Of a DNA stretch of 39,125 bases, positions 473 to 39,125 are shown one piece after another. Within the stretch, counting starts at the first letter, position 1. Every line of letters starts with the position of its first letter. This stretch comes from Reclinomonas americana ATCC 50394 (taxonomy: Eukaryota), in the NCBI GenBank assembly GCA_048213135.1, contig PS015124.1:48528-87652 (forward strand), read 5' to 3'. Under the pieces are notes generated by a model, which saw nothing but the letters and a program-made list of their open reading frames with translations, searched no databases and was not told the origin of the DNA. The position numbers and the translations under genes were made by a program.

Positions 473-3400
473 ATGTCAAGGCGCCACACGCCCGGTCACA
501 GCTACGAAAGCTGTTGCGCGCGGACACACACACACACACACACACATNNNNNNNNNNNNNNNNNNNNTCCCTCGTGGACCGCACGCGGAGGAGGAGGCGC
601 CAACAACTCGTCCTCGCGCTCCTCCACACCTCCAGCGATGCGATTGGGAGGAGGTGGTGGTGGTGGAGGAGGAGGAGGGTATACTGCGCGGAGTGGGGAA
701 GGCGGGGCGACGATTCTGGGAACGCTGGCCGGCAGCAATGCGGAGAGTGTGGTGGAGGAGGAGAGTCCGTTGTATGTGGCGTGCAGGTGAGGAACGGGAA
801 AGGAGTAAGGGGGAAGGGAAGGAGAAGGTATTCTTTCTGTTGCTCTCAACTCGCGCTTGAACGTTTCGAACTGAGAGAAGGCTGTCTGTCTCTGTGCGCT
901 GTGGGAGAGACGTACAACTGACCCTTGATTGATTCAGAGGAGAGAGGCACTCTTCCTGAAAGACAGTGCAACTCACCTTTGAATATTTTATCTCCTTCTC
1001 TTTTCACTCTCTAATGCACGTCGTGAGGAGATGAGATGTGAAGAGATCGATTTTCTCTCCAGCACCGTTCCTTCGAAGAGACGCGCAACTCACGTTTGAG
1101 CGTTTCGAACTGAGAGAAGGCTGTCTGTCTCTGTGCGCTGTGGGAGAGACGTACAACTGACCTTGAACGATTCAGAGGAGAGAGGCGTTGTCTCTCCCTC
1201 CTCCCTCCTTCACTCTGTGAAGGTGTGTGTCGTGAGGAGATGAGCTATTCTATTTGCATTCTCTTGCGCATTCCCTTTGGAGAGTCGTACAACTCAAGCT
1301 CGAGCACTTCTGAGCTGTAGGAGAGACGCACAACTGACCCTTGAGCAATTCAGAGGATAGGGGCATTGTCTCTCCCTCCTTTCTGTTTCACTTTATGAGA
1401 GTGCACTTCGTGAGGAGAAAGTGTTCCTTCTCTTGCTTTCACTGGCTGCACCTTTCCTGGAGAAAGACCAGCTAACCATTAAGCACTTCGAATGGAAAAA
1501 GGCTGTCTGTCTCTGTGCGCTGTGGGAGAGATGCACAACTGACCCTTGAGCAATTCAGAGGAGAGGCATTCTCTCTCCCTCCTCTCACTTTCACTCTGTA
1601 ACGGTGTGTGTCATGAGGAGATGGGCTGTTCTATTTGCAGTCTCTTGCGCATTCCCTTTGGAGAGTCGTACAACTCACGCTCGAGCACTTATGAGCTGTA
1701 GGAGAGAAGCACAACTGACCCTTGAACAATTCAGAGGAGAGGAGTATTCTCTCACCCTCCTGTCTGTGCACTCTACCTGTGTGTATGTCGAAAGGAAAGA
1801 GCTGCGAAGGGCTTGTTCTCTCGTTCTGTCTTGCGCAACTCAAGGTTGAACATTTCAGGGAAGACATGACTGACGGTCCCGTACTCCCTCTCATTCTCCT
1901 TTTTTCAGCTTGAGCATTGCGGGATAGAGACTGGACTGTCCTTCTTTCTCACCCTCTGTCACGAAGACTTGGGCCTTCTTCACCCTCTCTCCCCTCTCCT
2001 CCCACCCTTGCGACCATGTTTTCTGAACCACCTCCATGCCACAGAGACGGCCGGCTGGATCGAGTGCGATCAATTATTGCCTCCTCACCAAGTGGTTTTG
2101 ATTTGACGCTGGTGAATACTATCTTCTCCCTCTGTCTCCCTCCCCTCCCCTCCCCTATCCTCACCCCCACTCCCACAGGGCAAAGTCTGCCGGTGCACGC
2201 ATCCCGAGGTGGCCACCGACGAAGTCGTGTTGCGCGAGTCACCGCTGTATGTGGCGTGCGTCCACGGTCGTGCCGAGGTATACAATCTCCTCCCCCTTTC
2301 CCCGTCGCCCCACTCCCTTACTCACTGCCCCCCCCCCCCCCCCCACGGTCGCCTCCGAGTTGCTAGCGCACGGAGCACCGCCCGCCATTGGCTGCGCGGA
2401 GCACCGTATCGACGAGTTTGTAGGATCACGGCTCGTGCACAACATTACGTGTCTGTACGGGGCCGTCGATGCCGGCTACCTGGGCGTGGTTGGCCTGTGC
2501 GTCCTTCTGCTTTGCTCCATCCTTGGTGTGCAAGTGCACTCACATTGTCGGCTCTTCAGTTTGCTGGAACACGGAGCCGATCCCAACACCGTGATCGAGC
2601 ATCACCACGAAGTGCGCCTCGCCGACGAGGCTCCATTCACCGAAATCGAGCGCGCCACAGCACTGCATTGTGCAGTGGAGCGCGGGCATTGTGCGTCTGT
2701 TCACCATTCACGATTTCTTTGATTGTCTTCTCACTCCCCTCGCAGTGGAGTGCGCCCGCCTTCTGCTGCGCCACAACGCACAGGTCGAGGAGGTGCAGTA
2801 CTCGTATCTGGAGAATCAACCGGCGCCGGGCGAGTTGGTGACGCAGGAGCGCTCATTCCGACCGGTGCATCTCGCCGCCTATCACGGCCACGATCGACTG
2901 CTGGAGGCGCTGTTGGATCACGGAGCGAGCATCGAATCCAAGTACGTGTGCTCGGTGAATGGGAGAGAGTCGACGGGCACGCCGCTGCATGTGGCGGCGC
3001 AGACCGGGCACGTTGAGGCCGCCAGATTACTGCTGAAGCGGGGAGGTACCGACCGATTGCGACAATGATGTCCATCCACCCCTCGTTGCTGATTCCGTGA
3101 AATTGCGCAGCATTGGTGGATGCCACGGACGGCAACGGACTGACGGCGTTTCTAATGGCGTGCCAGTTGGGCAACTTGGAGATGGCACAGTTTTTGCAGA
3201 GTGCTGGTGCCGATGTCAACTGCAAGACGTGTGATGGGGCCACGGCGTTGTCGGTGAGTGCTGAAAGGGGAAGAGAGGGGGAGGGGAGGGAATNNNNNNN
3301 NNNNNNNNNNNNNNNNNNNNNNNNNNNNNNNNNNNNNNNNNNNNNNNNNNNNNNNNNNNNNNNNNNNNNNNNNNNNNNNNNNNNNNNNNNNNNNNNNNNN

Positions 3401-5096: not shown

Positions 5097-5177
5097 GTCT
5101 ACTTCTTCTTTAAAAGCGCGTGGGAAAAAGGTAGTAACATGCGGAATTCTGTTGTACACTTTCTAAAGCGCAGCTGT

Positions 5178-6179
5178 TCACGAGCTCTTCACGGCACGCT
5201 GGCAGGTGACATGCAGGCGGCTGACCTCGCGCTGGAAGTCATTGTCCAGCGTGTGCGTCAGGCTGCCGTCGTTGGGCAGACCGGCGTCCTGGATCTTGCT
5301 GACAATGTTGCGGCGCTCGGCGGACCAGATGCCAGAGAGAGCGCGCTCGGCTTGCAGGCACGCAGTGCGCACGGCATCGGTGTCACCGCGGATGCTCTTG
5401 TCGTTGGCCTTGGCGCGTCCCTTGTCGCCGGCAATGTGCAGGGCGCGAATGGCACGGCGAGTGCGGTGGTAGATCTCCTCCAGAGTCACGTCGCGGTCGA
5501 GGTAGCGGTGGACAGGGTCAGCTGCAGCAGGCAAGAAGAGAGAGAGGTGTGAGTGGAGGTGGCGGGCAAGGGCAAAGGAGAGGAAAGGCGAGACAACGCA
5601 ACAGACGGGGTGCTGGTTGAGGTTCAGTTCGTTGTGGCGAATGTCTCCGGGGCGGTTCTCAATGTCCTGCACCGACAGGTTGCGGTTGTCGTACGGACGA
5701 GGTCCACGAGTGACTGCNNNNNNNNNNNNNNNNNNNNNNNNNNNNNNNNNNNNNNNNNNNNNNNNNNNNNNNNNNNNNNNNNNNNNNNNNNNNNNNNNNN
5801 NNNNNNNNNNNNNNNNNNNNNNNNNNNNNNNNNNNNNNNNNNNNNNNNNNNNNNNNNNNNNNNNNNNNNNNNNNNNNNNNNNNNNNNNNNNNNNNNNNNN
5901 NNNNNNNNNNNNNNNNNNNNNNNNNNNNNNNNNNNNNNNNNNNNNNNNNNNNNNNNNNNNNNNNNNNNNNNNNNNNNNNNNNNNNNNNNNNNNNNNNNNN
6001 NNNNNNNNNNNNNNNNNNNNNNNNNNAAGGGGACATACAAGTGTGTGTGAGTGTGGTGGGAGGGGGAGGAGGGAGGAGGGAGGGGAGTGAGGGAGAACGG
6101 AACTGCCATCACCACGGGCACTGACGGTCACGGCCACGAGGCACAAGACCAGAGCAAAGACGAGAGTCGAGCGGATCAT
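5178..6179 (-). CDS. Secreted protein A, family 1 (unknown function, ~175 aa, 3 exons)
   Basis: Signal peptide MIRSTLVFALVLCLVAVTVSA, then ITRGPRPYDNRNL...HPV|SDPVHRYLDRDVTLEEIYHRTRRAIRALH...CQRAVKSS*. Intron 1 spans a gap; the structure is confirmed by the ungapped copy at 9718-10396. Confidence 0.85.
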   Translation of the reverse strand: MIRSTLVFALVLCLVAVTVSARGDGSSVLPHSPPSSLLPLPPHSHTLVCPLXXXXXXXXXXXXXXXXXXXXXXXXXXXXXXXXXXXXXXXXXXXXXXXXXXXXXXXXXXXXXXXXXXXXXXXXXXXXXXXXXXXXXXXXXXXXXXXXXXXXXXXAVTRGPRPYDNRNLSVQDIENRPGDIRHNELNLNQHPVCCVVSPFLSFALARHLHSHLSLFLPAAADPVHRYLDRDVTLEEIYHRTRRAIRALHIAGDKGRAKANDKSIRGDTDAVRTACLQAERALSGIWSAERRNIVSKIQDAGLPNDGSLTHTLDNDFQREVSRLHVTCQRAVKSS

Positions 6180-6807
6180 GGTAGTGTCTGGGTTGGGCTG
6201 GTGGTCTGCGCTCGCAACACAAGGCTAAAGGCAAGTGGTGATCGCTTCCGGCTATTGGCAGGAATTGATCCGGACTATTCGCGCTGCGATGGTTGGACAC
6301 TACCACTGTGTCCGAAATGTAAGCCGCTCACTCTCTCACCTTGCATGCAAGCAGGCTAGCAGGCAAGAAGACCACTGCTTCCATTCAGTGCTATCGCCAT
6401 TGTCGATCACTGTGCTGGTGCAGAGAAAGCAGAATCGTGCAAGCAGTACCGGTTTTTCAGTGCAAGTGTGTTCGGTCCGATTATCGACCGAAGTCGAGAC
6501 ATGCGACCAGCCTCGCGTGCGCCGAAGAGAATGGTGGAACACTGGGGGGATAGATGCACTTGTACACGCAATCTTAAAGATCTCTGTGCTTGACTTGACG
6601 GCCAAGCTGCGGAATGCGGACAACTCATGTAGTCGGCAGAAGCTGGGTCCAGATTTAACAGGAGACGTGTCCATGCACCACCGCGTAGCTGCACGAAGGC
6701 ACCACCACTGTGTGTGTTGCGAGAGGAAGAAATCCGATTCATTGTCACCTCTGAATCAAATTTGGAAATACTGGTTTTCTTTCAGTCGAGGTGTGAGCAA
6801 AGGAGAC

Positions 6808-6992
6808 ATGCGCGCTGTGTTGATCATCGCCGTGACTGTCTGCCTGTTGGCGGTGGTCGCGAGTGCTGCAAGTTGCGCGCACACACTCTATCAGCTCGCC
6901 ATCACCACAGCACTCATGATCACTTGCTTTTTCTCCTTGCGTGCAGTTCCTCGTCACCGACACAGGCGCAACTTTGTGAATCGTTGAGTATG

Positions 6993-7033
<41 letters not shown>

Positions 7034-7619
7034 GAGAGAGAGTGTGAGAGAGAGAGAGAGTNNNNNNNNNNNNNNNNNNNNAGAGAGAGAGAGAGGAATG
7101 TGTGAGAGAGAGAGAGTGATCACTCATCGACAAGCCACTCATTGTCTCACCCTCGCACAGCCTTCCGTGGAAGCCACGGCGAGGGCCCTCGTGCGCGCTT
7201 CACCTGTTGCGTGACGCACACACACTAATGTCTCCCTCGCATCACACCTTTGCTCACATCGCGATGCACACGCGAACGAAACAGCCGTGCCCGGTCGTGC
7301 CTACAATCGCTTCCTCGACAACCGCGCCACCCTCCGCGATGCATACCTGCGTCACCTGCCCGGCAAGCTGCGTCGCGAGGCCGTCTACCACGAGCTGTTT
7401 GAGCGCGATGCACGTCTGCGTGCTCGTCGCGATGGAGTGTCCGACGAGGACTTTGACACGGCAGTGCCCGGATTCAGTGGCCACCGTCTTCGTCGCCACC
7501 GCCGCTTGTCGCACGCCGAGGCTCCGTCTGCGCGACAACTCAGCTGCGGCAATGGCGGATGCGACACACGTCGTCGGTGCGCCAATGAGCGTCGCCGTTG
7601 GCTCGCCAATGCGTGGTAG
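6808..7619 (+). CDS. Secreted Arg-rich protein B, family 2 (unknown function, 4 exons)
   Basis: Signal peptide MRAVLIIAVTVCLLAVVASAA. Phase-1 introns with GTTGCG, GTTGAG and GTTGCG donors join IPRHRHRRNFVN|PFRGSHGEGPRARFT|SVPGRAYNRFLDNRATL...CANERRRWLANAW*. Confidence 0.8.
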
Positions 7620-7739
7620 AGATATCGATGAGTGGTGGTAGATTGATGTCAAAGTTTTGTTTGCTTGTTGCCGTCCCTTTTTTTCAATGAATTGAATCTT
7701 GTTTTGCACCCACACCTCGTGGTGCCTAATGCGCATCGA

Positions 7740-7838
7740 GGCCGCGCTCCATCCGCCCTCACACCAGCTACACTCTGTTGCGCGAACGAGCGCTGTGACG
7801 AACAGCGTCGCCGGTGGTTGGCCGGTGCTTGGTGATGA
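7740..7838 (+). pseudogene. 3' remnant of gene D left in duplication copy 1
   Basis: Encodes ANERCDEQRRRWLAGAW** and is followed by the same downstream sequence as D (13148 onward), but the upstream D exons are absent. Confidence 0.8.
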
Positions 7839-8237
7839 AATTCTTGGAGGAAGTGTGTGAATTATGTTTTGCATTGTAGTTGCTGGTGTTGTTGTTGTTA
7901 TCGCTGCTACACCAGTCTTGCTCGTGGCTGCTCTTCTCGGTAACTCGGCTGTTTCTCCATGGCCACATCACCGTCATGATCGTGCGCGATCGACAGCATT
8001 GCATTTTGCAACTGTTGGCACTTGCCCACGAACAGCAAGGTAGCAGAGCTGTCGTTGGACATGCCCATCCTGACAGACCAGCGCAAGCACAGTGGCATCA
8101 CTTCTTACACAGGTCCTGGACACGAGAAAACCAATGCAATGCAATGTATGTGCTGCGTTCAGTTTCGCACGTTGCTCATCGAATTCACACTGGCTTTGTT
8201 TGTTTGCTTTTGGTTCGACAGTGGAGAAGAGGAAACC

Positions 8238-8993
8238 ATGCGCACCACCACCTGTGTTCTCGTGTTGACTCTCAGCCTGCTGGCGGTGGCCTCACAAGCC
8301 GCAAGTTGCGCGCGACTCATTCTTTGACAGCGACAACTGTGTGGTCCCTCTCTCACACACTCGCGTACCATCCCCCACACACAGTCCTCCGCGGTCCTCG
8401 TGCCTATGACAACCGTAACCTCTCGGTCGCCCAGATCGAGAATCGACCAGGCGACAGTTGCGTGACCACACCAACACAACACAACGCTGATGAGCGATAT
8501 CAAAACTCATCAGTTTCGTACGCTCACTTCAACACACAGTTCGTCACGTCGAGCTCAACCAGGACCGCCACCCTGTCTGTTGCGTCTATCCACCACCCAT
8601 CGCAGACACTGCATCCCTCTGCAATCCACTCACCCTCCCACTCCCGCAGCGACACCGACCCACCGCTTCCTCGATCGCGATGTGACGCTGGAGGAGATTT
8701 ACCACCGCTCGCGCCGCGCCATTCGTGCGCTGCATGTGCAGGGTGAGCGTCTGCGCCACCAAGTGGCCGGCATCTCTCCAGCTGGCGACACGGACGCCAT
8801 TCGTGCGGCGTGCCTGAGTGCGGAGCGTGCACTGGACGAGACGTGGGCAGCGGCGCGTGACGGCATTGTGCACAAGAGCATTGACGCTGGCCTGCCCAAC
8901 GACGGCACCCTCACACACACGCTCGACGACAACCACCAGCGTGAGATCAGCCGTCTGCATGTGGCGTGCCAGCGCGCGCAGCACAGCTCGTAA
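8238..8993 (+). CDS. Secreted protein C, family 1 (~173 aa, 4 exons)
   Basis: Signal peptide MRTTTCVLVLTLSLLAVASQAA. GTTGCG donors at 8305, 8457 and 8579 give ILRGPRAYDNRNL...RPGD|IRHVELNQDRHPV|STPTHRFLDRDVTLEEIYHRSRRAIRALH...CQRAQHSS*, colinear with A. Confidence 0.85.
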
Positions 8994-9264: not shown

Positions 9265-9717
9265 GGATAGAGATGGAGGGAGGGAGAGAGGTGAGAGTGG
9301 TGCACTGGCAGCAGCCACGCGTGCACACTCACACTCATCACCGAATTGCAAGCGAGTGAGTGGACGACTGGTGACGAACTGTCAGCATCAGAATCGAAAT
9401 GTCACACTCCATCAGTCAGGAATGGACGCCTGAGAGGCTGTTCATGTAGCATTACCATTACCATCTCTCTCTTCTCTTGTACATCTTCCTCACGCCACGA
9501 GACCACGTGTACATTGTTCGATATTTGGAATACTGGTGCATGTGCTGGAGAAGTTATCTTCGTCACTGCCGACTGCATGCCTTGATGACGGAGTCTATCT
9601 AGTGCAGGCGACAACAGCAGTCTTAGCATTCAACGCAGCCAACCATTGCGCAGCAGGTGAAAAGTGGACAGGTAAAACATGCGGAATTCTGTTGTACACT
9701 TTCTAAAGCGCAGCTGT

Positions 9718-10396
9718 TCACGAGCTCTTCACGGCACGCTGGCAGGTGACGTGCAGGCGGCTGACCTCGCGCTGGAAGTCATTGTCCAGCGTGTGTGTCA
9801 GGCTGCCGTCGTTGGGCAGACCGGCGTCCTGGATCTTGCTGACAATGTTGCGGCGCTCAGCGGACCAGATGCCAGAGAGAGCGCGCTCGGCCTGCAGACA
9901 CACAGTGCGGACGGCATCGGTGTCACCGCGGATGCTCTTGTCGTTGGCCTTGGCGCGTCCCTTGTCGCCGGCAATGTGCAGGGCACGAATGGCACGGCGA
10001 GTGCGGTGGTAGATCTCCTCCAGAGTCACGTCGCGGTCGAGGTAGCGGTGGACAGGGTCAGCTGCAGCAGGCAAGGAAAGAGAGAGGCATGAGTGGAGGT
10101 GGCGGGCAAGGGCAAAGGAGAGGAAAGGCGAGACAACGCAACAGACGGGGTGCTGGTTGAGGTTCAGTTCGTTGTGGCGAATGTCTCCGGGGCGGTTCTC
10201 AATGTCCTGCACCGACAGGTTGCGGTTGTCGTACGGACGAGGTCCACGAGTGACTGCGCGAGGGGACGCAAAGTGAGTGAGTGAGTGGAGGGAGATGGGG
10301 AGGAGAGAGGAGAACGGAACTGCCATCACCACGGGCACTGACGGTCACGGCCACGAGGCACAAGACCAGAGCAAAGACGAGAGTCGAGCGGATCAT
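9718..10396 (-). CDS. Secreted protein A' (duplicate of A)
   Basis: Ungapped 3-exon copy with donors A|GTTCCG and T|GTTGCG. The protein differs from A at VRTVC vs VRTAC in the visible sequence. Confidence 0.88.
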
Positions 10397-11029
10397 GGTG
10401 GCTTCTGGGTTGGGGCTGGTGGTCTGCGCTCGCACACACAAGGCTAAAGGCAAGTGATGGTCGCTTCCGGCTATTGGCAGGAATTGATCCGGACTATTCG
10501 CGCTGCGATGGTTGGACACAGCCGCCGTGTCCGAAATGTAAGCCGCTCACTCTCTCACCCTGCATGCAAGCAGGCAAAAAGGCAAGAAGACTACTGCTTC
10601 CATTCAGTGCTATCGCCACTGTCGATCACTGTGCTGGTGCAGAGAAAGCAGAATCGTGCAAGCAGTACCGGTTTTTCAGTGCAACTGTGTTCGGTCCCAT
10701 TATCGACCGAAGTCGAGACATGCGACCAGCCTCGCGTGCACTGCAAGCGCGTGGTGGAACACTCGGGGGAATAGATGCACTTGTACACGCAATCTTAATG
10801 ATCTTTGTGCTTGACGTGACGGCCAAGCTGCGGAATGCGGACAACTCGTGTAGCCGGCAGAAGCTGGGTCCAGATTTAACAGGAGACGTGTCCATGCACC
10901 ACCGCGTAGCTGCACGAAGGCACCATACCACTTGTGTGTGTTGCGAGAGGAAGAAATCCGATTCATTGTCACCTCAGAATCAAATTAGGAAATACTGGTT
11001 TTCTTTCAGTCGACGTGTGAGCAAAGGAC

Positions 11030-11760: not shown

Positions 11761-12170
11761 AGATATCGATGAGTGGTGGTAGATCGATATCAAAGTTTTG
11801 TTTGCTTGTTGCCGTCCCTTTTCTTCAATGAATTCAATCATGTTTTGCATCCACTTCTCGTGGTGACACAACTGTGCGCATGCAAGTCGCATGCCAGCAA
11901 TCAAAAACTGCAGAATCGCGAGCAGTAGTTGCAAGATGTGCGCGAGGTGAACGAATCCTGGAAGAAAGTTGGGCGTGCATGCCAGTCGATTTGTCCGCAG
12001 CGCACAGCAGGTGAGTGGATATGTTCGCAGCGTGCAGCAGGTGAGAGTGTACACAGCCGGCTCGTGATATTGTCGTTTTGTTATTCGCGATTACGGTTAC
12101 CGTAGTGTAATATGAAATACGTTTCGTGAGTTATTTCGGACGTGAGGAGAAGAACAGGAGAAGTCAAACC

Positions 12171-26500: not shown

Positions 26501-29500
26501 GTTGGAGCCACCGACGCTGATCGGAGTCGAGAAGTTGAGGCGCACGCCAGTCGAGAACAGGCGCGAGTACGCCACGTTGGTGGGCGCAGCCGGCACTGCA
26601 CCGTTGTTGTCGGTGGTGGCCTGGATGGAGCCAGCCGACGAGGCGCTGGTGTTGTTGTTCACGGTGAACTTAGCCTTGACCGTGTACTGCGTGGCAGCCA
26701 CAAAGTTGTTGGTGGTGCCGCTCACAGTGAAGCCAGTGATCTGCTGGTAGAAGCCAGAGTTGTACGAGAACAGGCCGTAGAACGAGGTGGCGAGGTTGCC
26801 GTTGCCAGTGGCGCCAGAGGTGATGGCAGGCTGGTCAGTGCTGGCGTTGGTCACCGTGTAGGCGGCCGTCGGCGCAGCGCCAGTGTCGCCCGAGCCAAAG
26901 GTGGCCGGGTAGTTGAAGGCGACGACAAACGAGGTCGAAGTGACCTGGTCCACAGAGCCAGTGTACGGGGCGACCGAGTAGCCAGTCGGGGCCGCCGGGG
27001 CGCTCATGGCACCCTGCAGCGTCACCGTCACGGCCGACGAGAAGGTCAGGTTGGCACCGTTGGCGCCCGGAGTGCCGCTGCCGTTGTTGTAGGCCACAGA
27101 CACAGCGCAGCTGGTGCCCGTCAGGCCAGTGACCTTGACGAGCACGCGGTTGCGCGACAGACCAGAGCTGCCGACCGGGATGCCGAAATCGGTCAGATCG
27201 GCAATGGTGGTGGCCACCGTCACCGCACCGCTGCCGCAGTCCGACTTGACGTACCACGACGGAGCGCCGCCAATCACGCCCACATTGGCCGCCACACCCT
27301 CCCACTCCACCCACGACGACGTCGAGGTGATGTAGCGCAGGTTGGACGACAGCGTCGGCGCCGCAGTCGACACCTTGGTGGCATCGGTGCCGCTGGTGGT
27401 CAGAGTGCCGCTCCAGGCCGTGGCCGAGCGGTTCACCTGCGACTCAGTCCACACGTTGATAGTGTACGACTGGCCAGTAGTGGCGCTGGCAGCGGCGAGC
27501 GCGCTCAGCGTGTAGCCGCGCCACGTGCCAGACGACACGCTGGCAGCGGTCACAGTGGTGGGACCAGCGTCGGTGAGGACGAACGCGCGGTACGAGGTGG
27601 CAGTGACGGCCAGGTTGGACGTCTGCTGCACGGTGAGCGAGGTGTTGATGTCCTGGAACTGGTTGGCAGCAGTGCCGACCGAGGCGTTGGTGGAGAGACC
27701 GCCCTGGCCGACGAGGTCAGTCGGCAGCTGCAGCCAGACGGTGGCCTGGGTGCTGCCAATGTAGTAGATGGCGTTGGTGCCGGCAGTGGCGACCGCACCA
27801 CGGGCTGTATTGAGAAGTACGTGAGCTCACATGAAGTATGGCAAAGAACGAAGAGACTTGGGAGATGCGCAACTAGTGGCAGTCCAGAAGTTGGTGCCAG
27901 TCGGCGAGGCAGCGGCAGAAGCGTTGGTGGTGCCAACGCCGCTGACAAGCGAGTAGGTGACCTGCGGGAAGTATTGGCGACCGGGGAGGAGGCCAGAGAG
28001 GGTGACCTGCCAGCCGTCGAGGTGGGCAGTGGCGGGCTGGTTGCTGTTGGCGGTTGTGGTGAGGCCCGAGGCGACAGCGACACCGCGCACGTTGGCGGTG
28101 CTGGTGGCGGTGAACTGGTAGGCGCTAGCAGCCTGGCTGGCAGCAGCAGTGGCCTGGTTGGCCGTGTAGCCGTTGCCGGTGGCGGTCAGGGTGATGACGA
28201 AGGTCAGCGAGGTGTCGGTGATGTCGATGACGGTGATCGAGTTGGCGGCGGGGAGAGCACCAGCGCCACCAGCGGCGGCACCGGTGGCGACGGCACCAGC
28301 ACCGTTCGAGGCGACGACGGCAGCAGCACAGCAGTACAGCTGCACGGGAGTGCCAGCGTTGACGAGAGTCCAGTTCACGCCGACCGTGGCGGTGGCCGAC
28401 GGAGTGGTGCGGACGGCAGCGACAAACTTGGCGGCCGACAACACGGTGGTGGAGGTGTTGCCGTCGAGGTACTGGAAGTCAGTGACAGCCGCACCGTTGC
28501 TACCGGCGTTGGTGCCGGCAAAGAAACCGACAGCGTTGACACCGCCGACAGTCGCGCCGGAGCCAGCAGTGGCCACGACACCGCGCTGAGTCGGTGAGCC
28601 GATGTTGAGCACCACAAAGTTGGTGCCGATCGTGACGAATCCGTTGACGTCGGTCACGGCAGTGCCAGAGCGGTTGTACCAGACGGCATTGGTGGGAGCG
28701 GTCACGGCCTGCGAGGTGACGACCGCAATGTTGGCGGTGACAGTGCCACCAGTGGTGTTGGCCGCCTGCAGCTGCGCGTTACCGCCAGCGTTGGGGAACG
28801 TGAAGGTCACGGAGCCGGTGAGGTCGCTCGGGCCCATCGACACGGTGCCGGTGGCGCCAGTGACGTTGTTGGCCACAAACGTGTACGGAGTCGCACCAAA
28901 GTTGCCGTTACCAATGACAGTGGCGGCAGTCGTGTTGGCCAGGCAGTTCGTGGCCGTGCTGCCAGTCACCGACCAGCAAGCCACCAGAACCGGGGCAGTG
29001 CCGAGAGTCGGGTTGGCGGCGGCGTTGAGGGTGATTTCCTGCTGCGCGGCAACGTCGAGCGCGGCAGTGCCGTCGCCAGTGGCGTTCTGCGCCGTGACGC
29101 GGACGCGGTACTTGGTGATGTTGGTCGTCGCCAGCTTGGAGATCAGAATGTGGCCACCAGACACACGGCCAAAGGTCGTGTCGGTCACCGGCGAGCCAGT
29201 GAACGAGGCGCCAAAGGCGTTGTACATCACAGTGCCGCCGTTGGCCGAGGCCGCAGCCTCGACCTTCCAGCCGGTGATGGCACCACCAGTCAGCTGAGGA
29301 GTGGTCCACGACAGCAGACCGCCATCAGAGGCGGCAGCCACGGTGGTCGGGATCAGGACCTTGCCCGGAGACTGCTTGCCGTCCTGGGTGGTCACCGTGG
29401 CGGTCTGCGAGAAGAGGAGAGGCAGGTGGGGTGAGCAACTTCCTTCCAACTTTAAAAAATGATTAGAAAGACGCAACAGTGCTCCACGGGCCAAAGCCCC

Positions 29501-30729
29501 ACTGGCCGACAGCGCGAGCGCGCACCACGTAGCCAGTGTTCGGCTGCAGAATGCCGGACGAGGCGGTGGCACCAGTGCCAGACACCACGCACGACTGCTG
29601 CGAGAAGGGAGAGGCATTGAACGGCAGAATCGCCGCGTTGGCGTTGTTGCCGTTGGTGGTCTCAGTGTAGAAGGTCACCGGGGTCCAGGCGTTGATGGAG
29701 GTGCCGGTCGAGCTGCGGATCTGTACCTGGAAGAAGGGAGTCTGCAGCTGGTTGAAGTTCGAGTTGCCGGTGCCGGTGGCGCCAGTCTGGCCGAGCTTGA
29801 TCGGCGGGTAGAACGACAGCACAAACGAGGTGGCAGCCGTGTAGTTGATGGCCAGGCTCGTCGGCTGGCGCGGGGTACCGCCGAGCGGCACCGTCACGAC
29901 CTGCGACGAGGTGCGGACGCCCTCACCGTACAGGTTGACCGAGTAGGCCTGTTGGTGGGAGAAGAGAGGACATGAGTGGGGGAGAGGTGGTAAGATGGGA
30001 GGGGAGGAATGAAGGAGACGCAACAGCGATGGTGTACTGCACGCCCTCCTGGATGTTCTGGTCAAAGTAACGCAGAATCAGGCCGTAGCAGCCGTTGCCG
30101 CCGGTCGAGGGGCCACCATTGGGGACAATGGCGTTGACCGACGAGCACTGTTGGTGGAGGTGAGCAGAGGAGAGGAGAGAGGGGAGGGAGCAGGCAAGGA
30201 GACGCAACAGTGTACTTGGTGGTGCCACCAGTGCTGGTCACGTCGACACCGAACTCGGTGGGCGGCGCGTTGCCCTGGTTGATGGGGGTCGTCCAGTTGA
30301 CCCAGATGGCCGACTGCGAGCCAGTCGGGGAGGAAGTGTCGAGATCTGCCAAAAAGGAGAGAACAAGAGTGAGTGAGGAGGAATGCACACACGCACGAGA
30401 GAGAGAGAGGGAGAGAGAGGGTGAATTGCACGCACCATCCTCTCCCACAGCCTTGATAATCTGGAATTGCTCCGGCGCGTTAGAGCTGCCAGGGGCAAAA
30501 GTGGTGGTCTGGGCGTCTGTGGAGGACGGGAACGTCAGTTGGACACGTTTACAACAGAAAACAAACACGCACACTCGTACAGTCGGATGCAAAAGATGCA
30601 TCCCACAAAGTGGCGATCGAGTCGCCACGGAATCACCGTCTCGCCATCACATGTGCGACATGCAAACTCACCAGCCAAGAGGACTGCGCCGAGGAGCACG
30701 AGGCACACGATGGAGAGGAGCCAACGCAT
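23530..30729 (-). CDS. Large (~2,200 aa, 8 exons) Thr/Ala/Ser/Gly/Asn-rich fibronectin type III repeat surface glycoprotein, probably GPI-anchored
   Basis: Signal peptide MRWLLSIVCLVLLGAVLLA. FN3 signatures include LQPNTGYVVRARAVGQWG, LLPGRQY, LTANTSYTYQVYA, LNSNTKYRIGVASYNG, LTDATNYFIDVRGINGIG and LQPGTPYVVNVRAVNSYG. It has many N-x-S/T sequons and ends in a hydrophobic tail with no cytosolic part (LWTVVLMAIAALLAFAF*). All seven introns restore frame. Confidence 0.88.
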
Positions 30730-31188
30730 GTTCTGCAAGCGGGAGTTGAGTGAGTTCGCGGCACGTCAGTTGCGGAGAGCAGTTGGACGAGGAGGAAGAA
30801 GAACAGAGTGGTGCACGCCGCTCTCACGCTTGCAAACGCAGGAGAGCAGCGACAGAGAGGAGAGGTCAAGAGTACGTGTGCGTGTATGTGTGTGAGAGAT
30901 TGAGGGAGGCAGCATGAGAGAAGAGCTGAAAGAGCACGTGTACCACGAACATGTACACAATAAGACGAACAAACAAGCAATATACACGCAACCAAGAAGA
31001 AAGAAAGAGACAATGTATGGGAGAAAAGGGCAGGTTGCCAACTCACCGCCGACAGTGCAAGAAAAAAGTAAACTGAGTGTACACCTTGTCGCGACGACTC
31101 ATGTTGTCCCCGACTGCTTCCATATCCGCACCGTTCGTGTCAATTATTTGCCATTATTGTCGCCCAACTGCCACGCTGCAGTGGCGCC

Positions 31189-32377
31189 ATGGCGTCACGG
31201 GCTCCATGTCGGTCACCAGTGGCTTGCTCGCCTGAGTCGTGCGCACTGCTGCGCGTAGTGAGTGCGAGTCGAGGGACGCACAGAGAGTACAAAAGTGAGG
31301 GGATGGTCCACGCGGTCGCATGCGACACGGATTTGGAGGGAGTTGCAACTGCTGCTGTCAAACTCACGCACGGCGCTCGAGGAGAGAAAGGGATGGAGGA
31401 GTGGGAGGCAGGTGGGAGAAGGAGGGGGGAGTGGAGGAAGGAGAGGTGGCATGGGAAAGGGTGATCAGTTGGGGTTTTGGCGCGGCATTGAGTCAACTAC
31501 TCACTACACAGTGATGTATTGAGATGCACGGGAGGGGGAGGAAAGAGGATGGGAGGAGGAAGAGGAGAGGGAGGGCGAGGAAGGAGAATGACAGGAGGAG
31601 GAGGGAAAGAGAGAGATGCAGAGGGAAGCGCAGTGGATGAAGAAAGGAGCATGAGACAGGCGAAAAGAAGAAGGAGATGGCGGTGAAGAAGGAAAGGAAC
31701 AAGTCGGGTGAGGATGAGGAGGAGGAGACAGTAAAGAAGAATGAGCAACTGCAGACTCAAACACTTCTGATCCACACACGAGCCAGCCCGAGTGCCCAAC
31801 ACAGACAACAGACGACAATGCAGGTTGACTGTCTCTCTGCATGAGTGAGTGAGAGAGACTGTGTGTCATTGAGTGAGAGAGAGAGTGCGAGCTCACTGCC
31901 TCTTTCACTGTCTGTCTCTCTTGCTCTCTCTCTCTCTCTCTGTGCGAGTGTGCGTGTGCGTGTGTATGTCACTGGTGAAGCATGCAGAGGACCTCTCGCA
32001 GTGATATGCAGACTGTCTATCTCTCTCTCTCGCTCTCTGTGTGTGTGCTTGTGAGTGAGTGAGTGGGTGAGTGTGTCTGTGAGTGTGTGAGTGAGTGTGA
32101 GTGAGTGAGTGAGTGAGTGAGTGAGTGAGTGAGTGAGTAAGTGAGAGTGTGAGTGAGTGAGGGAAGGGAGAGAGTGAGTGAGTGAGTGTGTGTGTGTGTG
32201 TGTGGGAGGGAAAGAGTGAGTGAGTGAGTGAGTGAGTGAGTGAGTGTGTGTGTGTGTGTGCCTGTGAGAGAGAGAGAGTGAGTGAGTGAGTGAGAGAGAG
32301 AGAAAGAGTGAGTGTGTGTGCACTTCTCTTTCTGATTGTGATTGTGTGTGCATGCAGTCACATTAATCAGTGCATGC

Positions 32378-32431
<54 letters not shown>

Positions 32432-33956
32432 CTCCTNNNNNNNNNNNNNNNNNNNNNNNNNNNNNNNNNNNNNNNNNNNNNNNNNNNNNNNNNNNNNNNN
32501 NNNNNNNNNNNNNNNNNNNNNNNNNNNNNNNNNNNNNNNNNNNNNNNNNNNNNNNNNNNNNNNNNNNNNNNNNNNNNNNNNNNNNNNNNNNNNNNNNNNN
32601 NNNNNNNNNNNNNNNNNNNNNNNNNNNNNNNNNNNNNNNNNNNNNNNNNNNNNNNNNNNNNNNNNNNNNNNNNNNNNNNNNNNNNNNNNNNNNNNNNNNN
32701 NNNNNNNNNNNNNNNNNNNNNNNNNNNNNNNNNNNNNNNNNNNNNNNNNNNNNNNNNNNNNNNNNNNNNNNNNNNNNNNNNNNNNNNNNNNNNNNNNNNN
32801 NNNNNNNNNNNNNNNNNNNNNNNNNNNNNNNNNNNNNNNNNNNNNNNNNNNNNNNNNNNNNNNNNNNNNNNNNNNNNNNNNNNNNNNNNNNNNNNNNNNN
32901 NNNNNNNNNNNNNNNNNNNNNNNNNNNNNNNNNNNNNNNNNNNNNNNNNNNNNNNNNNNNNNNNNNNNNNNNNNNNNNNNNNNNNNNNNNNNNNNNNNNN
33001 NNNNNNNNNNNNNNNNNNNNNNNNNNNNNNNNNNNNNNNNNNNNNNNNNNNNNNNNNNNNNNNNNNNNNNNNNNNNNNNNNNNNNNNNNNNNNNNNNNNN
33101 NNNNNNNNNNNNNNNNNNNNNNNNNNNNNNNNNNNNNNNNNNNNNNNNNNNNNNNNNNNNNNNNNNNNNNNNNNNNNNNNNNNNNNNNNNNNNNNNNNNN
33201 NNNNNNNNNNNNNNNNNNNNNNNNNNNNNNNNNNNNAAGGGGTCAAAGGAGAGGATGAGTGACTGAGGAAGAGTGTTGCATTATGATGCTATGATTCTGT
33301 CACTCTTGCATCTTCCGACCCACTCTTCTTCAGTGTCGCCTGCTCTCCTTTGCTCCTTCCTCACCCCCCCCCCCTCTCGCTCTCTCTTTCTCATCGCATA
33401 TTCCGGCTGAGGATCGCAAGTTGCAGTGAGATACTGAGAGAGAGAATGAGAGAGCGAGAGAGAGAGACAAGTCAACGAGGAAGCATAGAGTGACTGAGTC
33501 TGACTGCTTGTTGTCTTGCATGCAACAAGCTGCAGTGAGATGCTGAGAGAATGAGAGACAGACACAGACAAACGTGCAGCGAGAGAGACAAGTCAACGAG
33601 GAAGCATAGAGTGACTGAGTCTGACTTTGTGTTATCTTGCATGCTGAGGATCACAAGCTGCAGCGAGGTGTTGAGAGAGAGGCAGATAGACTGAGAGAGG
33701 GCAAGAGAAAGAGTGACTGCGACTGAGTGTGGTGGTATCGGAATGGAGAGACACACACACCAGCACACGCAGACTGACAACAATTGATCTTTCTCGCTCT
33801 TCTTTGACTTGTCTCCTCTCTCTCTCTTGTCTCTCGTCGCAGTTTGAGGATCGGAAGAGGCAACGAGAGGCACAACAAAAGCCAATGTTTGGCTTCTTGC
33901 AACGCAAGGAATCTCCGGCGCCGACAGCTCCTCCGGAGAGTGATCGCAGCAAGTGA
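31189..33956 (+). CDS. Possible small multi-exon gene of unknown function spanning the 32437-33236 gap
   Basis: A plausible terminal exon at 33843-33956 follows a pyrimidine tract and CGCAG (FEDRKRQREAQQKPMFGFLQRK...SK*). A candidate first exon reads MASRAP...LLRV|GTGAGT, and a candidate internal exon lies near 31755-31822. Linkage between them is unproven. Confidence 0.3.
32040..32430. repeat. Compound microsatellite (GAGT)n/(GT)n/(CT)n bordering an assembly gap
   Basis: Directly visible. Similar (AG)n/(AC)n/(CCCTTC)n tracts occur at ~6996-7115, 9190-9260, 17136-17242 and 19500-19610. Confidence 0.95.
33405..33675. repeat. Short imperfect tandem duplication, 120-bp spacing
   Basis: GAGAGAGACAAGTCAACGAGGAAGCATAGAGTGACTGAGTCTGACT occurs at ~33461 and ~33581; CAAG.TGCAG.GAG occurs three times. 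Confidence 0.75.
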
Positions 33957-34031
33957 GGAGTTTTGCGTTTTTTTTTTTTAATCTCTCAGTGATAAAAAAA
34001 GGGATGGCGAGTCGTTAAGTGCGGCGGTGGA

Positions 34032-37000
34032 TTAGAGCACGACTCCGGCGGCGTCGAGATGCACAGGTGGTTCTGGGATCACTTCGCTGTCCGGCACCGG
34101 TTTGATCTGCAACCGGGAGGTGTCAGAAGCAGCAATGGTGCAAGGAAAGGAAGACGTCGAAGAGTCACTCGCTCTCTGTGCACACATGCGCACAGTGCAG
34201 GGGAATAGCCTCGCTGAACACACACACATACACGCAAACACGCCATGCGTGCAATGGAGAACAACAGCTTCGCTGAATTCGCATTTGTGGGAGTGTAGCT
34301 CTCCCTCGCTTTCTTGCTCTCTCTCTCTCTCTTCACGCACACACACAGTGGAGAACAACAGCCTCGCAGAAGTTGCATGAACACGCTCTCCGTGTGAGTC
34401 TGTCTGGCTTCATGCACGCAGTGAAGGACAACAGCTTCGCTGAATTTGCCAGCGGGGGAATGTAACCTCCCCGCACTCTGCATGCACTCACACACTCACT
34501 CCCTCTCTCACTCCCTCTCTCACATACCCACTCACTCCCTCACTCNNNNNNNNNNNNNNNNNNNNNNNNNNNNNNNNNNNNNNNNNNNNNNNNNNNNNNN
34601 NNNNNNNNNNNNNNNNNNNNNNNNNNNNNNNNNNNNNNNNNNNNNNNNNNNNNNNNNGCTCCCTCATTCTCTCTCTCTCTCTCTCTCTTTTCACTCGCAC
34701 GTGCGCGCCAAACTACAAACTCCGTTTCTCTTCCCCCAACTCACCATGCAAACATACACCCACACCGCCAGCACCTGGTTACGATACGCCTCCTGCGGTT
34801 GACAAGAGAGTGAGAAAACGCACGCATTCTTCGCACACTCCATAATGCGTACCAAGTGCACAGCAAAGCAAAACTGGACGTCCTTCGTTTTGTCTTCGTG
34901 AATGGGGTAGTTCTTCATGACCCACTGGAGAGGCAGAGAGGAGTGTCAGAATGAAATCCACAACAGACCTTCCCTCTCATCAGCGCACCTTGCGAATGCG
35001 AATCTCATCATAGTATGCAAAGCAGAATGCACGGCCCTCAAAATCGTGCCCCTTTGGCACCGCCTCTTGCAGCACACCCTTCCACGCATCGAGATCTGGT
35101 ACACGCACACGGGTGAGAAGGAGGAGGCGATGACAGCGAAGCCCTCTGCAGGAAAAAAACACACACACACCCCAATCCAAAATCTTGGTTCGAATGGAGC
35201 GCATCTCCTGCAACAAGTGCTTCCACTCCGCCGCCTGCTCCTTGGTGAGATTCTCACGCGGCAGCGCGGCGAGCTTTGCCTGGCACTCCTCCAGTTGCCT
35301 CTTTGGTTTCAGGCGGTCCTCCGGAGCCATGACGCGCAATCTGTGGCACGCACGACGAGAAATAATGAGGGCGGAGAATGTGAAAGATCGGTCTGCGATG
35401 AAAAACGAACTTTTCCATAATGCGCAGGCCCTGTCGCAAGGTCTTGTTCAACTCCAAGAACAGCTTCGTCTCCAGATGGTACTTGTTGCGCCACACGAAA
35501 TACGACACTGGGGAGGGAGAGAGAGACGTGAGAAGTCTTGTCAACAAGAAAGAAGATTGTTTTGCCAACGCACATTGCAACTCCTTCTGGATGCAGTCCG
35601 TGTAGGAGCGAACGCGATATACAGGGAACCGTGGCCGCAACGGAGTCTCGCGGTAGAAGGCCACAATGTGTCGTCGCAAGTGCGTCTGCAAATGGGCAGT
35701 CAGCAAGCTGGCAACGAGCATAATAATATTCATGCACGCGCTCAAACTTGATCTTTCCCCTCCTTTGCTCTCTCACTGCTCTATCGCTCTCACTTGCGTG
35801 TTCATTCACTACCATTCTTCACACACACCCCCTATTCGCCTCTCCTCCACTTCGCTCCATTCCGCGCGCTCGCCTTCTCACCTCTGTCCCCTTTTCATCA
35901 TTCCCTAACTCTCTCTCGTCTCTCAGCCACGCTCTCAGCTTCCATTTCTTTCTTCACGAATGTTCTTCCGTTTTCCCCCCTTTGCTTTCGTTGTACTCCT
36001 CGCGCCTACTTTCTAACCTCCTCGCCTCAATTCTCTCAGCCGCACGCTCAGCACCTCCTTCACACCCCTTCCCCTCCCTCCTCCTCCACTTCCGCTTCTC
36101 CCTACCTCCTTCCCCACCTTTCCCTCATCCCTTTCCCTCCCCCTCCCCCCTCCCTTTCCTCCCTTTCCCGCACGCAACAAATCGCGGATCATCGGGGATG
36201 AACGGCACCCACCGCGCCTCATCCTCCAAATCAAACTTGATGTGGTTCGGTCGCTCTTCCTGCGCATTCGCCCACAGATTCGTGTGGTTGAACACGACAT
36301 AGATCTTGGCGTACGGCACCGGTACGTGCACCAGAGGCTCCTCCAAACCACCCGAGTGCGCTTGCAGTGTCTGCTCACAGCGGCGCGTGAGAAGAGTTCA
36401 CACGAGGCGAGAAGCATGAGAGAGAGAGAGGGACTCACGTAGCGCCCATCAGAGCCGCGAGCAGTCACTGGCTTCACCACCGGTGCCGCACGGCCGACCA
36501 TAATGTCGTCCTCGTTCAACTCGTCCGACAGCACCTCACGCATCTCCAAGTACATGTCACCGGGGAAGATGATCATGTCCTCGTCACGCGCCTGAAACAC
36601 ACGCCATATTAGACAGGGGCAGTGAGTGGATGGGGGAAAGGAAAAAAAACGCAACATATGCGACATCGGCTTCGGCAGCCGCTGGAGATATCAACATGAG
36701 AGTCAGTAAAGCACATTCGCTACCACACACATTCACATTGAGAGAGACACACCTTGCGTTTCCTCTTCAGTGGGCTTCTGTACACCGACCCATCTCTCCG
36801 GAAGCTGCATTCAACAAAAGTGAGTCTTCTTCACCTTCCTGCGCAGACGCGCGCCAGACTCACCAAATAGTGCTTGCCGCTCGAGGTCTCCCAGAAAATG
36901 ACAGAACCGTCATCCTCGCGCGTCATCACCCACGTGTGCTCCACTCCAGTCGATGTCTCGCCAATACACAAATACGCCTCCACTCCGCGGTATCGCTCCA

Positions 37001-39125
37001 GACCCAGCATGAGATTGCACTATTGCTCATACGCATGAGGGGGATGCTGAATACAAAGCCACTCCCACCCCATTCGAGGCACGTACCATCAAAATCGCGT
37101 GATCCTCCGAATCGCCCTTGCGCTGATTCTGGAAGAACTCGGGCGTGGTCCAAATGTCGTCGTGCCCAGCAAAAATGTTCTCGTCCGTGTCCCACGTCAT
37201 GAGGCTGATCATGCGTGCAATGATACGCGGCTCACGTGTGTCTGCGCCAAGATTGACATGAGTGAACCGGAAGATCACACGCGGTATTTGAATGATGGTG
37301 GCGACGCACCGCGCGGGACTGGCAACTCCGGCGGCAACACGTACGACGGCAGGAAGCGGTCCATCAACTTCTCGTCCTTGCGCACCACCGGGAAGCGCGC
37401 CGTAATGCCGCGCGTCTTCATCTCGGCGTGCCACGTCTTGTCACGCTCCAAAATGTCGTCCGGCACCTTGTAGTGCGGGTCGAACACAGGATCGGGATCG
37501 TCCTCAAAGTCGATGCGTGGACCGAGATCTGTGGCACGCCAATGGTCAGCAACCAGGAAGCAGCGAGGGGAAAATACAATATGAGCAGCACCTTGGATAA
37601 AGTAGGCGCTGAATGTGACTTTCTGGTCGGCCTCCGGATGGAACGGGTTGACGAGTTTCAGCGTGCCCTGGAACATGCGCGTGGTCTCGCCACTGCGCTC
37701 CGTGTACGCCGACTTGTTGGCCTTCAGAATGCTGGAGACAGCTGTGGGGATAGCAAACAGTATACCGGTGAGATGATGCGGCTGTTAACTTCCTCGTTTT
37801 GCGATATTACGCACATAACCGCACAGTGCCCAGCAAATCATTGCCGTCCTTGTCCTCGTCAAACACCTCCAACTGAATCTTACCCTTGGCCTTGAACTCG
37901 TCCGGCGACTTGTCGATAAAGAGCACAGGGAAGTATAGCTTGGTGTCGAAGCGCGGATCCAGCTTCTCCGTGATTGTCTGCGCAGTGGGATGAGCATAAC
38001 TGTGCGGTGGAGTGGTGACTCTTCCGTGGAGGGCAGACGCAACTCTTGTGCGATACTGCATGCCGTCGTAGCTGACGACGACAAACGCATCCGAGTACAA
38101 CGAGGCGTCCGCCGCAATCAGATTCTGGCACGACTGAACGTGCACGGCGAGGTACGTGTGCCACGGCTTCAGCGTATCTGTGAAGCAGAGTCAGTATTGC
38201 AGAAGTGTAGAACGTATGAGTTGGAGTGGCGGGCGCAACAGAATTCGCCAGCCTGAATGTAGCGCGGACTGGACAGCAGGTTCACACTGCCCTGCAACAC
38301 ACCACCCGGTGTTCGTTTCCGACCCTCCACGTGCACTGCAATGGACGCGAGTATAAAGTGAGGGCGTCGAGTTTTGTAATGGCAGGGGAGAGAGCGCGAC
38401 GCACCAAGACGACATTGCAACATTTGCGTGTCCACCACACCACGCAGGGGCAGCAAACGCTCGCCAATCTTCACATCGCGTGTGCGGTTCCAGTCAAACA
38501 CCTGTACATCCAGATCCTCGTTCTCCAGCTCGCTCATGGTCCCGTAGTATGTCACCGAGCCCAACGTGTCCCACACAGGCTCGCTGCGGTGGCACACAAG
38601 GTGAGTCGAACGTGTATGTCGCGCGAAGGCAGTCCACACACGACGTACGTTGTCTGATAAATGACTGGCGACTGGAGGCCGCGGCCATAGAAACCGCCCA
38701 GCTTCTTCCATTTCCTCCAGTCCCTGCAGGAGAATGTCAGCTCACATCGACAACAGTTCGCCGACACACACATCCATCCACTCACCGCTTGATGACGAGC
38801 TTCACGTACGGATCCGAGACCAACTCTGCCTGCCCCTCCTTCCGGTCGACACCGACAATCTCGCGACCGGTCCAATCGTCGAAACTCATCACAAACTGGA
38901 ACATCTCCTGGAACATGATCTCAAAGTCGAGCTTCATCACGATCGGTGAGGAGGGGTGCGAGTCAAGGTGTGAGACGGAAGGGGAAGAGAAAGATGATGA
39001 TGATGATGGGAAATGAAGGATATCATTGCCGTCGCTGGCACCCGGTGGTGCGCGCAGCTCCACCGACTGCTGCACCTCGCCCGACGCAATGTCCACCAGC
39101 TTGGTGCGCGAGAAGCCCTTCAGCT
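34032..39125 (-). CDS. C2-domain protein of the CEP76/CC2D2A (MKS6) family with transglutaminase-like domain; 5' end outside the window
   Basis: C2 motifs: SDPYVKLVI, VQVFDWN, ADASLYSDAFVVV, LEVFDEDKDGNDLLG. Family core: WTTPEFFQNQRKGDSEDHAILM|CNLMLG...AYLCIG...HTWVMT...FWETSSGKHY and PYAKIYVVFNHTNLWAN. C-terminal QFCFAVHL|EAYRNQVLAVWVYV. About 21 introns in the window. Exact orthology is not assignable by eye. Confidence 0.88.
38946..39023 (-). other. U12-type (minor spliceosome) AT-AC intron, 78 nt
   Basis: On the minus strand: 5' end ATATCCTTC, branch-site-like CCTTGAC with its A at 38963, and 3' end CTCAC. The tract contains no AG. Removal gives GN|AIVMKLDFE. Confidence 0.88.

Follow-up and report, generated by a model that had tools for sequence, protein, structure and literature searches.

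The G at intron position +5 is, after the GU itself, among the most conserved intron positions across eukaryotes, and recognition of a donor out of register is regarded as a rare curiosity of mammalian splicing. A stretch of nuclear DNA from Reclinomonas americana ATCC 50394 (contig PS015124.1; 39,125 bases, hereafter the window) raises the question of whether donors in which this G stands at +6 form a genuine and common class, and how such donors might be read. An earlier note on the window, made from its letters, had claimed that roughly 40% of the introns start in this way, with GTTGCG, GTTGAG or a similar hexamer, and that the cut falls before the first G. Here, donors of the form GTTNMG, with G at +6, are called class 2, and ordinary donors of the form GT[GA][ACT]G, with G at +5, are called class 1. 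We conclude that the class 2 introns are genuine, abundant GT-AG introns of the major spliceosome with a second donor consensus, W|GUUGCGU, the core of which is probably read one position out of register by a single recogniser. The window is eukaryotic DNA with a G+C content of about 55%, and it comes from a draft assembly with ten runs of N. Coordinates refer to the window, and + and - denote the strand.

Abundance of donors with G at +6

The curated set comprised 47 GT-AG introns, including 26 with GTTNMG donors, 18 with G at +5 (GT[GA][ACT]G) and three with other donors (GTTTACG at 21300, GTGCTG at 37591 and GTTCGT at 35410). When counted by distinct donor 14-mer, the class 2 share was 23/44. 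GTTNMG accounted for only 117 of the 5,031 GT sites in the window (2.3%), showing that the class exceeds chance, and the "roughly 40%" of the earlier note was a fair summary, its count of 37 in about 70 being plausible. The motif was present on the stated strand at all 16 positions that had been named (13 GTTGCG, two GTTTCG and one GTTACG), and the cut was independently supported at 15 of them; the exception was 513, where an assembly gap lies 35 nucleotides downstream. Ordinary GTGAGT, GTGCGT and GTACGT donors coexisted with class 2 donors in the same genes, again as claimed. All 26 class 2 introns started with GT, the 22 with a fixed acceptor all ended with AG, and their removal restored the reading frames. 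Their lengths were 61-133 nucleotides, the longest listed being 493 nucleotides; class 1 introns were 59-98 nucleotides long, with a first intron of 155 nucleotides in the gene for a fibronectin-type repeat protein (FN3 gene).

The class 2 share was 2/5 in the gamma-tubulin gene, 4/19 in a CEP76-family gene (one of the four by frame logic only), 5/7 in the FN3 gene and 11/11 in a family of secreted proteins (7/7 when non-redundant). Where homologues alone fixed the donors, in the gamma-tubulin and CEP76-family genes, class 2 made up 6/24. The NBS1-like gene over-samples class 2, since its curated sites were the four of the earlier note and only one ordinary donor, and its share is inflated. 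Pfam matches (an FHA exon, C2 and CEP76 peptidase-like domains, fn3 domains and ankyrin repeats) showed that the gene names given previously hold in outline.

The class 2 consensus is an ordinary donor displaced by one base

In the non-redundant sets, positions +4 to +7 of class 2 donors were G (19/23), C (22/23), G and T (17/23), and positions +3 to +6 of class 1 donors were G (12/15), C (9/15), G and T (12/15). The class 2 columns therefore mirror those of class 1 one position on, showing an ordinary donor displaced by one base: W|GUUGCGU is the ordinary G|GUGCGU, which has GUGAGU and GUACGU variants, with the core U-R-M-G-U one nucleotide farther from the cut. When C-A/T|G-U-U-G-C-G-U is set against the canonical C-A-G|G-U-G-C-G-U, a single column differs. 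G was found at exon position -1 in none of the 23 class 2 donors but in 11 of the 15 class 1 donors (Fisher p = 1.1e-6). The exon side of class 2 carried C at -2 in 14/23 and T at -1 in 10/23.

The enrichment was also evident when coding information was set aside. CTSAY followed by pyrimidines and YAG was located 50-100 nucleotides downstream of 22 of the 58 GTTGCG sites, a count that includes recently duplicated copies, as compared with 427 of 5,026 GT sites (8.5%; p = 7e-10), and GTTGCG was the most enriched of the GT-hexamers when these were ranked upstream of branch-site and acceptor signals. The extra base was T only. GTT[AG][AC]G[TC] had the downstream signals in 25/58 (p = 2e-12), and no enrichment was observed when the inserted base was A (1/15), C (5/71) or G (5/78). 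Within the curated introns, CT[GCA]A[CT] was found in the last 30 nucleotides of 13/22 class 2 and 12/14 class 1 introns.

Shifted-register 5' splice sites in mammals were reportedly described by Roca and Krainer in 2009, and the bulge +2/+3 register of human 5' splice sites is said to have been set out by Roca et al. in 2012. Class 2 donors, with G at +6, lacked the G at +5 and the U1 complementarity of the standard register. They had the form of the shifted register, in which the consensus is displaced by +1 and G+1 takes the slot of exon G-1. The pattern differed from a bulge at +2/+3, as G was absent from -1 (0/23) and A, C and G were not enriched as the extra base. The complete lack of G at exon -1 thus favours a shifted register and disfavours a simple bulge. 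Taken together, the shift of the columns, the T-only insert, the lost exon G-1 and a donor with two extra T's (see below) are consistent with recognition in a shifted register with cleavage still at GU.

Gamma-tubulin gene

Five donors of the gamma-tubulin gene (- strand) were fixed by tblastn with two full-length homologues as queries (P0006 and P0035): two GTTNCG, one GTTTACG and two ordinary. The first donor was ordinary (GTGAGA, 22674-22679) and was placed by the homologues after MPREIVTLQ. The second was a class 2 donor, GTTACGC (22588-22594); the alignments with P0035 and P0006 ended with ..GQCGNQ, where this was the sole GT, and the acceptor was lost in the gap at 22500-22519. A class 2 GTTTCG donor opened the following intron of 61 nucleotides (21818-21878), and the cut DLEPR|VING was flush with the homologues, confirming the DLEPR|VIN junction proposed in the earlier note. 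An ordinary intron of 72 nucleotides with GTGCGT (21643-21714) was supported by the homologues and by a joint in contigs from another organism. A further intron, of 64 nucleotides (21237-21300), began with GTTTACGT, a two-T form in which the core was displaced by two bases. It was fixed by both sources alike, the contigs joining 21235>21300 and the homologues reading ..FDSSR|EIVQ.

These contigs came from a related organism, in a run (X1) that was only guessed to be RNA and had a share of words of 0.05, and were compared with positions 18001-38000 of the window. Long X1 pieces differed from the window at 6-12% of letters, mostly at every third base. Exon-exon junctions would be identical whether the contigs were transcripts or intron-less DNA. 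Nine joints were listed, and four of them (21464>21525, 21817>22678, 25629>25806 and 34107>34852) were uninterpretable because they involved gaps, a side that was short or unknown letters at the joint. The contigs joined across 21300, 21714, 29477, 34988 and 35170, and one piece stopped 2 nucleotides before 25803; the X1 junctions, from this related organism, spanned two class 2 introns and the two-T intron.

One X1 contig had 667 letters at the place of the 20 N at 21501-21520. This and the other 20-N runs (548-567, 7062-7081 and 22500-22519) mark assembly gaps, their true size unknown, in which exons are hidden, and about 40 gamma-tubulin residues after GQCGNQ were missing around the gap at 22500-22519. 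A search for gamma-tubulin among 5.8 billion proteins found 158, the best with 75-76% identity, and no close relative. In a quick tree the host was located outside animals and fungi with good support, with no definite placement beyond that.

CEP76-family gene

The CEP76-family gene (34739-39125, -) has a C2 domain and a CEP76 peptidase-like domain with about 20 introns, and it runs off the end of the window. It was aligned with one full-length, transcript-derived homologue (P0123, from a search of 1.84 billion representatives) by a spliced alignment that demanded only GT..AG, and 20 introns were proposed across 39120-34739. Two of these were overruled on reading the sequence: one at 36750, and one at 38976, where the aligner had skipped 57 nucleotides of an insertion that we interpret as an AT-AC intron. 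Among 17 well-aligned donors, three were GTTGCG (38239, 38043 and 36178), as compared with 1.15% of GT sites (binomial p = 9e-4). The corresponding class 2 introns were 62 (38178-38239), 66 (37978-38043) and 493 nucleotides long (35686-36178). A fourth GTTGCG intron of 64 nucleotides, following a 26-nucleotide exon (36592-36655), was placed by frame logic only, in a region unconserved in P0123.

The ordinary introns placed by the same alignment had GTGAGT (38724-38785 and 36805-36863), GTACGT (38584-38648 and 37020-37086) and GTGCGT donors (38336-38404, 37742-37814, 37242-37309 and 35508-35573). To these were added a GTGAGT intron with a weakly supported acceptor (36341-36438), a GTGTGT intron (35096-35170) and a GTGCGC intron (34925-34988), both of which also had an X1 joint, and a GTACGC intron (34793-34852). 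A further GTGTGT intron (36682-36752) was placed by frame logic. Two aligned introns fitted neither class: GTGCTG (37529-37591) had no G at +5, and GTTCGT (35341-35410) had T at +3 but G at +5.

The insertion mentioned above contained a candidate U12-type AT-AC intron of 78 nucleotides (38946-39023, -), which lies outside class 2. Its 5' end was ATATCCTT, CCTTGAC was located 17 nucleotides before the terminal AC, and its in-frame removal restored the alignment with P0123. This candidate indicates that a minor spliceosome is probably present. When one 169-residue stretch of the CEP76-family protein was used as the query, only two proteins with E <= 0.001 were found among the 1.84 billion representatives, indicating that the family is very divergent in the host lineage. 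Nothing was found in a metagenome scan with P0123.

FN3 gene

The FN3 gene (23533-30729, -) encodes a very large protein with fn3 repeats that is rich in Thr, Ser and Ala, begins with a signal peptide and ends in a hydrophobic tail (a membrane or glycosylphosphatidylinositol anchor). Five junctions between its open reading frames each had a frame-compatible GTTGCG intron, among 5, 2, 15, 3 and 5 possible GT..AG pairs, and once the five introns were removed, 2,133 codons could be read through without a single stop. All five were also picked by a gene finder that had no donor model. They were 61 (30148-30208), 76 (29949-30024), 73 (29405-29477), 69 (27805-27873) and 133 nucleotides long (25671-25803). 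For the third, an X1 contig joined 29404>29481 with three letters between; for the fifth, the X1 piece ended at 25806, 2 nucleotides before the exon end, and the acceptor was not fixed by X1. The two ordinary introns were the first, of 155 nucleotides with GTGAGT after the signal-peptide exon (30517-30671), and the second, of 90 nucleotides with GTGCGT (30346-30435), which the gene finder also picked. Only 14.6% of FN3 codons end in T, yet all three phase-0 class 2 donors (3/3) followed a T-ending codon.

The donor-blind gene finder performed well on the FN3 gene and the secreted genes and was unreliable with short exons; it was kept out of the counts. It failed the gamma-tubulin benchmark (placing one donor, e.g., at 21868 and not at 21878), and its predictions collapsed onto the codon usage of FN3. 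The 3' end of the FN3 gene had an X1 word depth of 4,141, by far the highest of the stretch. A search with the FN3 protein returned two weak matches, with no close relative and no copy of the window's own protein, and a metagenome scan with an FN3 exon found nothing.

Secreted family

Members of the secreted family have a signal peptide followed by a conserved C-terminal exon (..R[FYL]LDRDVTL.EI..) and had no Pfam match. When the five copies were aligned, intron 2 was present in copies B and D (GACA|GTTGCG...CAG|TTCG) and absent from copies A and C, which read the uninterrupted GACATTCG, leaving a single possible placement. The GD|IR argument of the earlier note, in which one copy with an intron was matched to the uninterrupted GDIR of another, was therefore correct. 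In copy B (+), GTTGCG introns were located at 8305-8384 (intron 1), 8457-8539 (intron 2, 83 nucleotides) and 8579-8649 (intron 3), with intron 2 standing between the GACA and TTCG that adjoin in A and C. Copy D (+), a recent duplicate of B, had GTTGCG introns at 13606-13683, 13756-13838 (83 nucleotides) and 13878-13945.

Paralogue alignment likewise placed the introns of the remaining copies, all on the - strand. Copy C had a GTTCCG intron 1 of 67 nucleotides (10254-10320) and a GTTGCG intron 3 of 81 nucleotides (10062-10142). Copy A, a recent duplicate of C, had a GTTGCG intron 3 of 81 nucleotides (5522-5602). Copy E had a GTTGCG intron 1 of 83 nucleotides (15775-15857) and a GTTGAG intron 3 of 90 nucleotides (15616-15705). 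The gene finder agreed for intron 3 of copies A and C and for both introns of copy E. In three old paralogue lineages the intron bodies have diverged too far to be aligned, yet GTTG[C/A]GT persists at two intron positions, indicating that the motif itself is under selection.

A unit of three genes of this family has recently been duplicated as a segment, with about 5100-8990 corresponding to about 9680-14290; the pairs were A/C, B/D and another gene with a signal peptide, whose donors were at 6872 and 11094. The GTTGCG sites that pair up between the segments were offset by about 4.2-5.3 kb. Class 2 candidates outside the curated table included those at 6872, 11094 and 12400 (+) and at 1089 (-).

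NBS1-like and ankyrin genes and repeats in the window

The NBS1-like gene (+) had an ordinary GTGAGG donor (17387-17392) at its FHA exon, which was identified by Pfam. A GTTGCG intron of 74 nucleotides (18272-18345) was supported by the frame across BRCT-like exons together with the FHA exon, and a GTTTCG intron of 91 nucleotides (18451-18541) by frame logic. Two more donors were placed by frame logic only: GTTGCGA (18651-18657), whose intron enters the gap at 18694-18843, and GTTGCGT (19106-19112), whose acceptor was unfixed. In the ankyrin gene, the motif GTTGCGC was present at 513-519 (+), and the gap at 548-567 masks the cut. Long (GAGT)n and (GT)n microsatellites at about 31900-32430 inflated the window counts of GTGAGT (97) and GTGTGT (154), and motif counting would take them for donor clusters.

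How the class 2 donors may be recognised

The reading that we favour leaves both donor classes to the same machinery. U1, and later the ACAGAGA box of U6, would pair with the core one position away from the standard register. The intron G+1 would occupy the slot of the exon G-1, and U+3 would occupy the slot of U+2 opposite the conserved A, with the scissile bond remaining set at GU. A run of U (GU, GUU and rarely GUUU) may let the pairing slip. The interpretation in the earlier note was borne out in part: the class is real and mainstream within the window, its consensus is the ordinary one moved by a single base, and the comparison with the shifted and +2/+3-bulge registers of human sites is apt. 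The simple bulge that it had also considered was disfavoured by the bases at exon -1.

Several observations weigh against recognition by one unmodified machinery. When pairing was predicted with the standard U1 5' end (11 nucleotides, with pseudouridines ignored; the host's own U1 may differ), the mean duplex energy was -1.0 kcal/mol for class 2 (n = 23), -5.8 kcal/mol for class 1 (n = 15) and -3.1 kcal/mol for 600 random GT sites. Only 11/23 class 2 donors folded best in the +1 register and only three of these had at least 7 pairs, showing that an unmodified U1 reading the shifted register is a weak fit. The T at exon -1 (10/23) is unexplained by pairing to U1 position 10. The class was also unevenly spread, with 6/24 in the two conserved genes as against 5/7 and 11/11 in the lineage-specific ones, which a pure model of two equivalent registers does not predict. 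Further, 7/26 class 2 introns were in recently duplicated gene copies, and all of the evidence comes from one 39-kb window, with junctions from sequence comparison and the contigs of a related organism. The poor predicted pairing to standard U1 makes a lineage-specific adaptation of 5'-splice-site recognition likely. [quoted passage not shown] Either pairing with U1 counts for little in these short introns, or recognition in this lineage has been adapted, possibly by way of a changed or second U1.

The last option leads to a different account, which we regard as a tentative alternative: a dedicated small nuclear RNA (snRNA), either a second U1 or a U1 with a changed 5' end and perhaps a matching change in U6, would be complementary to GUUGCGU, giving two codes and two recognisers. 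The class 2 motif is indeed tighter than that of class 1 (+4 G in 19/23 and +5 C in 22/23, as compared with 12/15 and 9/15), pairing to standard U1 falls below that of random GT sites (-1.0 vs -3.1 kcal/mol), and the class is concentrated by gene (11/11 in the secreted family and 5/7 in the FN3 gene). There is also a precedent in the available text on Physarum, in which the U12 snRNA co-evolved with a change of the branch site (10.1101/2020.10.12.336362). A more specific version, in which a second U1, possibly with a U6 or protein change, co-evolved with the W|GUUGCGU donors of lineage-specific, secreted and very highly expressed surface-protein genes, seems to us doubtful though worth stating. 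However, class 2 is exactly the ordinary consensus displaced by one, the exon-side G included, and a free-standing code need not be so; the variants GTTTCG, GTTCCG and GTTACG and the two-T GTTTACGT fit slippage on a run of U better than a fixed complement. An Rfam scan of the window at gathering thresholds gave 0 matches and no snRNA gene within it.

The concentration by gene bears on the origin of the introns as well. If these were young introns from one gain mechanism (an introner-like element or biased insertion), GTTGCG would have been inherited from the source and unselected. The class dominates the lineage-specific, fast-evolving genes and is a minority in the conserved ones, and one intron is present or absent between paralogues, as such a mechanism would have it. 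By contrast, the interiors of class 2 introns of different genes were no more alike than controls (identity 0.518 over 162 pairs, vs 0.52 over 91 class 1 pairs and 0.509 over 416 mixed pairs), so that an introner family was rejected; lengths ranged from 61 to 493 nucleotides, no target-site repeat was seen by eye at the borders, and the motif was retained while intron bodies diverged, which argues for selection on it. We consider this origin very unlikely, and because young introns still need splicing, it cannot replace a recognition mechanism. An artefact could lie in wrong gene models or in systematic one-base T insertions (homopolymer errors) in GTGCGT donors. An extra T would be intronic and would leave reading frames intact, ten N runs interrupt the draft assembly, and the donor-blind gene finder is unreliable with short exons. 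Assembly errors, however, would not strip G from exon -1, and the difference there (0/23 vs 11/15) is beyond the reach of random errors in ordinary donors; GTGCGT donors are unaffected in the same genes, independently assembled paralogues agree, and the cuts were established from homologues, X1 contigs and the presence or absence of an intron. Error can hardly be the explanation. Another splicing system appears more improbable still, be it the minor (U12-type) spliceosome, a probable AT-AC intron of which occurs in the same window, or structure-guided removal as in the non-conventional and intermediate introns of euglenids. Class 2 introns have GTTGCGT donors and a CTSAY branch motif at the ordinary distance, not the RTATCCTT donor and TCCTTRAC branch of U12-type introns, features that the separate intron at 38946-39023 does show, and their first 12 nucleotides paired with their last 45 no more strongly than in shuffled controls (mean z 0.0, n = 22); both U12-type identity and euglenid-like end pairing were rejected on these grounds.

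Meaning and comparison with known systems

An organism that places G at +6 in anything from a quarter to over half of its introns would offer a natural experiment on the definition of the cleavage site as against U1 and U6 pairing, on the slippage that the catalytic core tolerates and on the co-evolution of snRNAs with splice signals. For a large share of its genes, gene finders trained on standard donors would give wrong annotations. If two recognisers do exist, the cell could regulate or buffer the splicing of one gene class apart from the conserved housekeeping set. In the full-text literature, subscription papers and supplements lying outside its scope, no account of a class of GTTGCG-type donors was found for any organism.

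The closest known system is the shifted register of mammals. According to the available text of PMC4856993, validated non-canonical registers comprise 3,119 of 201,541 human 5' splice sites (1.5%), and the bulge +2/+3 register was predicted for 68 and curated for 54 of the 201,541. As described there, shifted-register sites have a U after the GU, the core stands one position farther downstream, every U1 pair is believed to move along by one and cleavage remains at GU, as in class 2; the exon preferences of the host (no G at -1, C at -2) also fit. The differences lie in scale and in the core. Shifted sites are a handful within that 1.5% of human sites, whereas they were 26/47 of the curated introns here. 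The core is AAGU in human and GCGU or GAGU here, and the pairing of the latter with standard U1 is predicted to be poor even in the shifted position. Proof of the human register came from suppressor U1s. The human bulge +2/+3 register, in the same source, likewise separates GU from the core by one additional nucleotide, at +2 or +3, and with two U's the bulged base is degenerate. However, a bulge keeps exon G-1 paired with C9 of U1 and should tolerate any base; here G-1 was found in 0/23 and the extra base was T only.

Two further systems share single features with class 2. A study of tandem donors in STAT3 (PMC11162779) proposes, in the text available, that U6 as well as U1 may bind in a non-canonical register, as would be needed for any class of shifted donors; it deals with one human exon and two competing GUs 3 nucleotides apart, and not with a class of donors. 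The work on the minor spliceosome of Physarum polycephalum (10.1101/2020.10.12.336362) concerns, in the part available, U12-type introns and their branch site, and 'GTT' or 'GUU' occurs 0 times in its main text. Nevertheless, like the window, it presents an unusual intron class that is common in one lineage, and there a U12 snRNA compensates for the change of the branch site.

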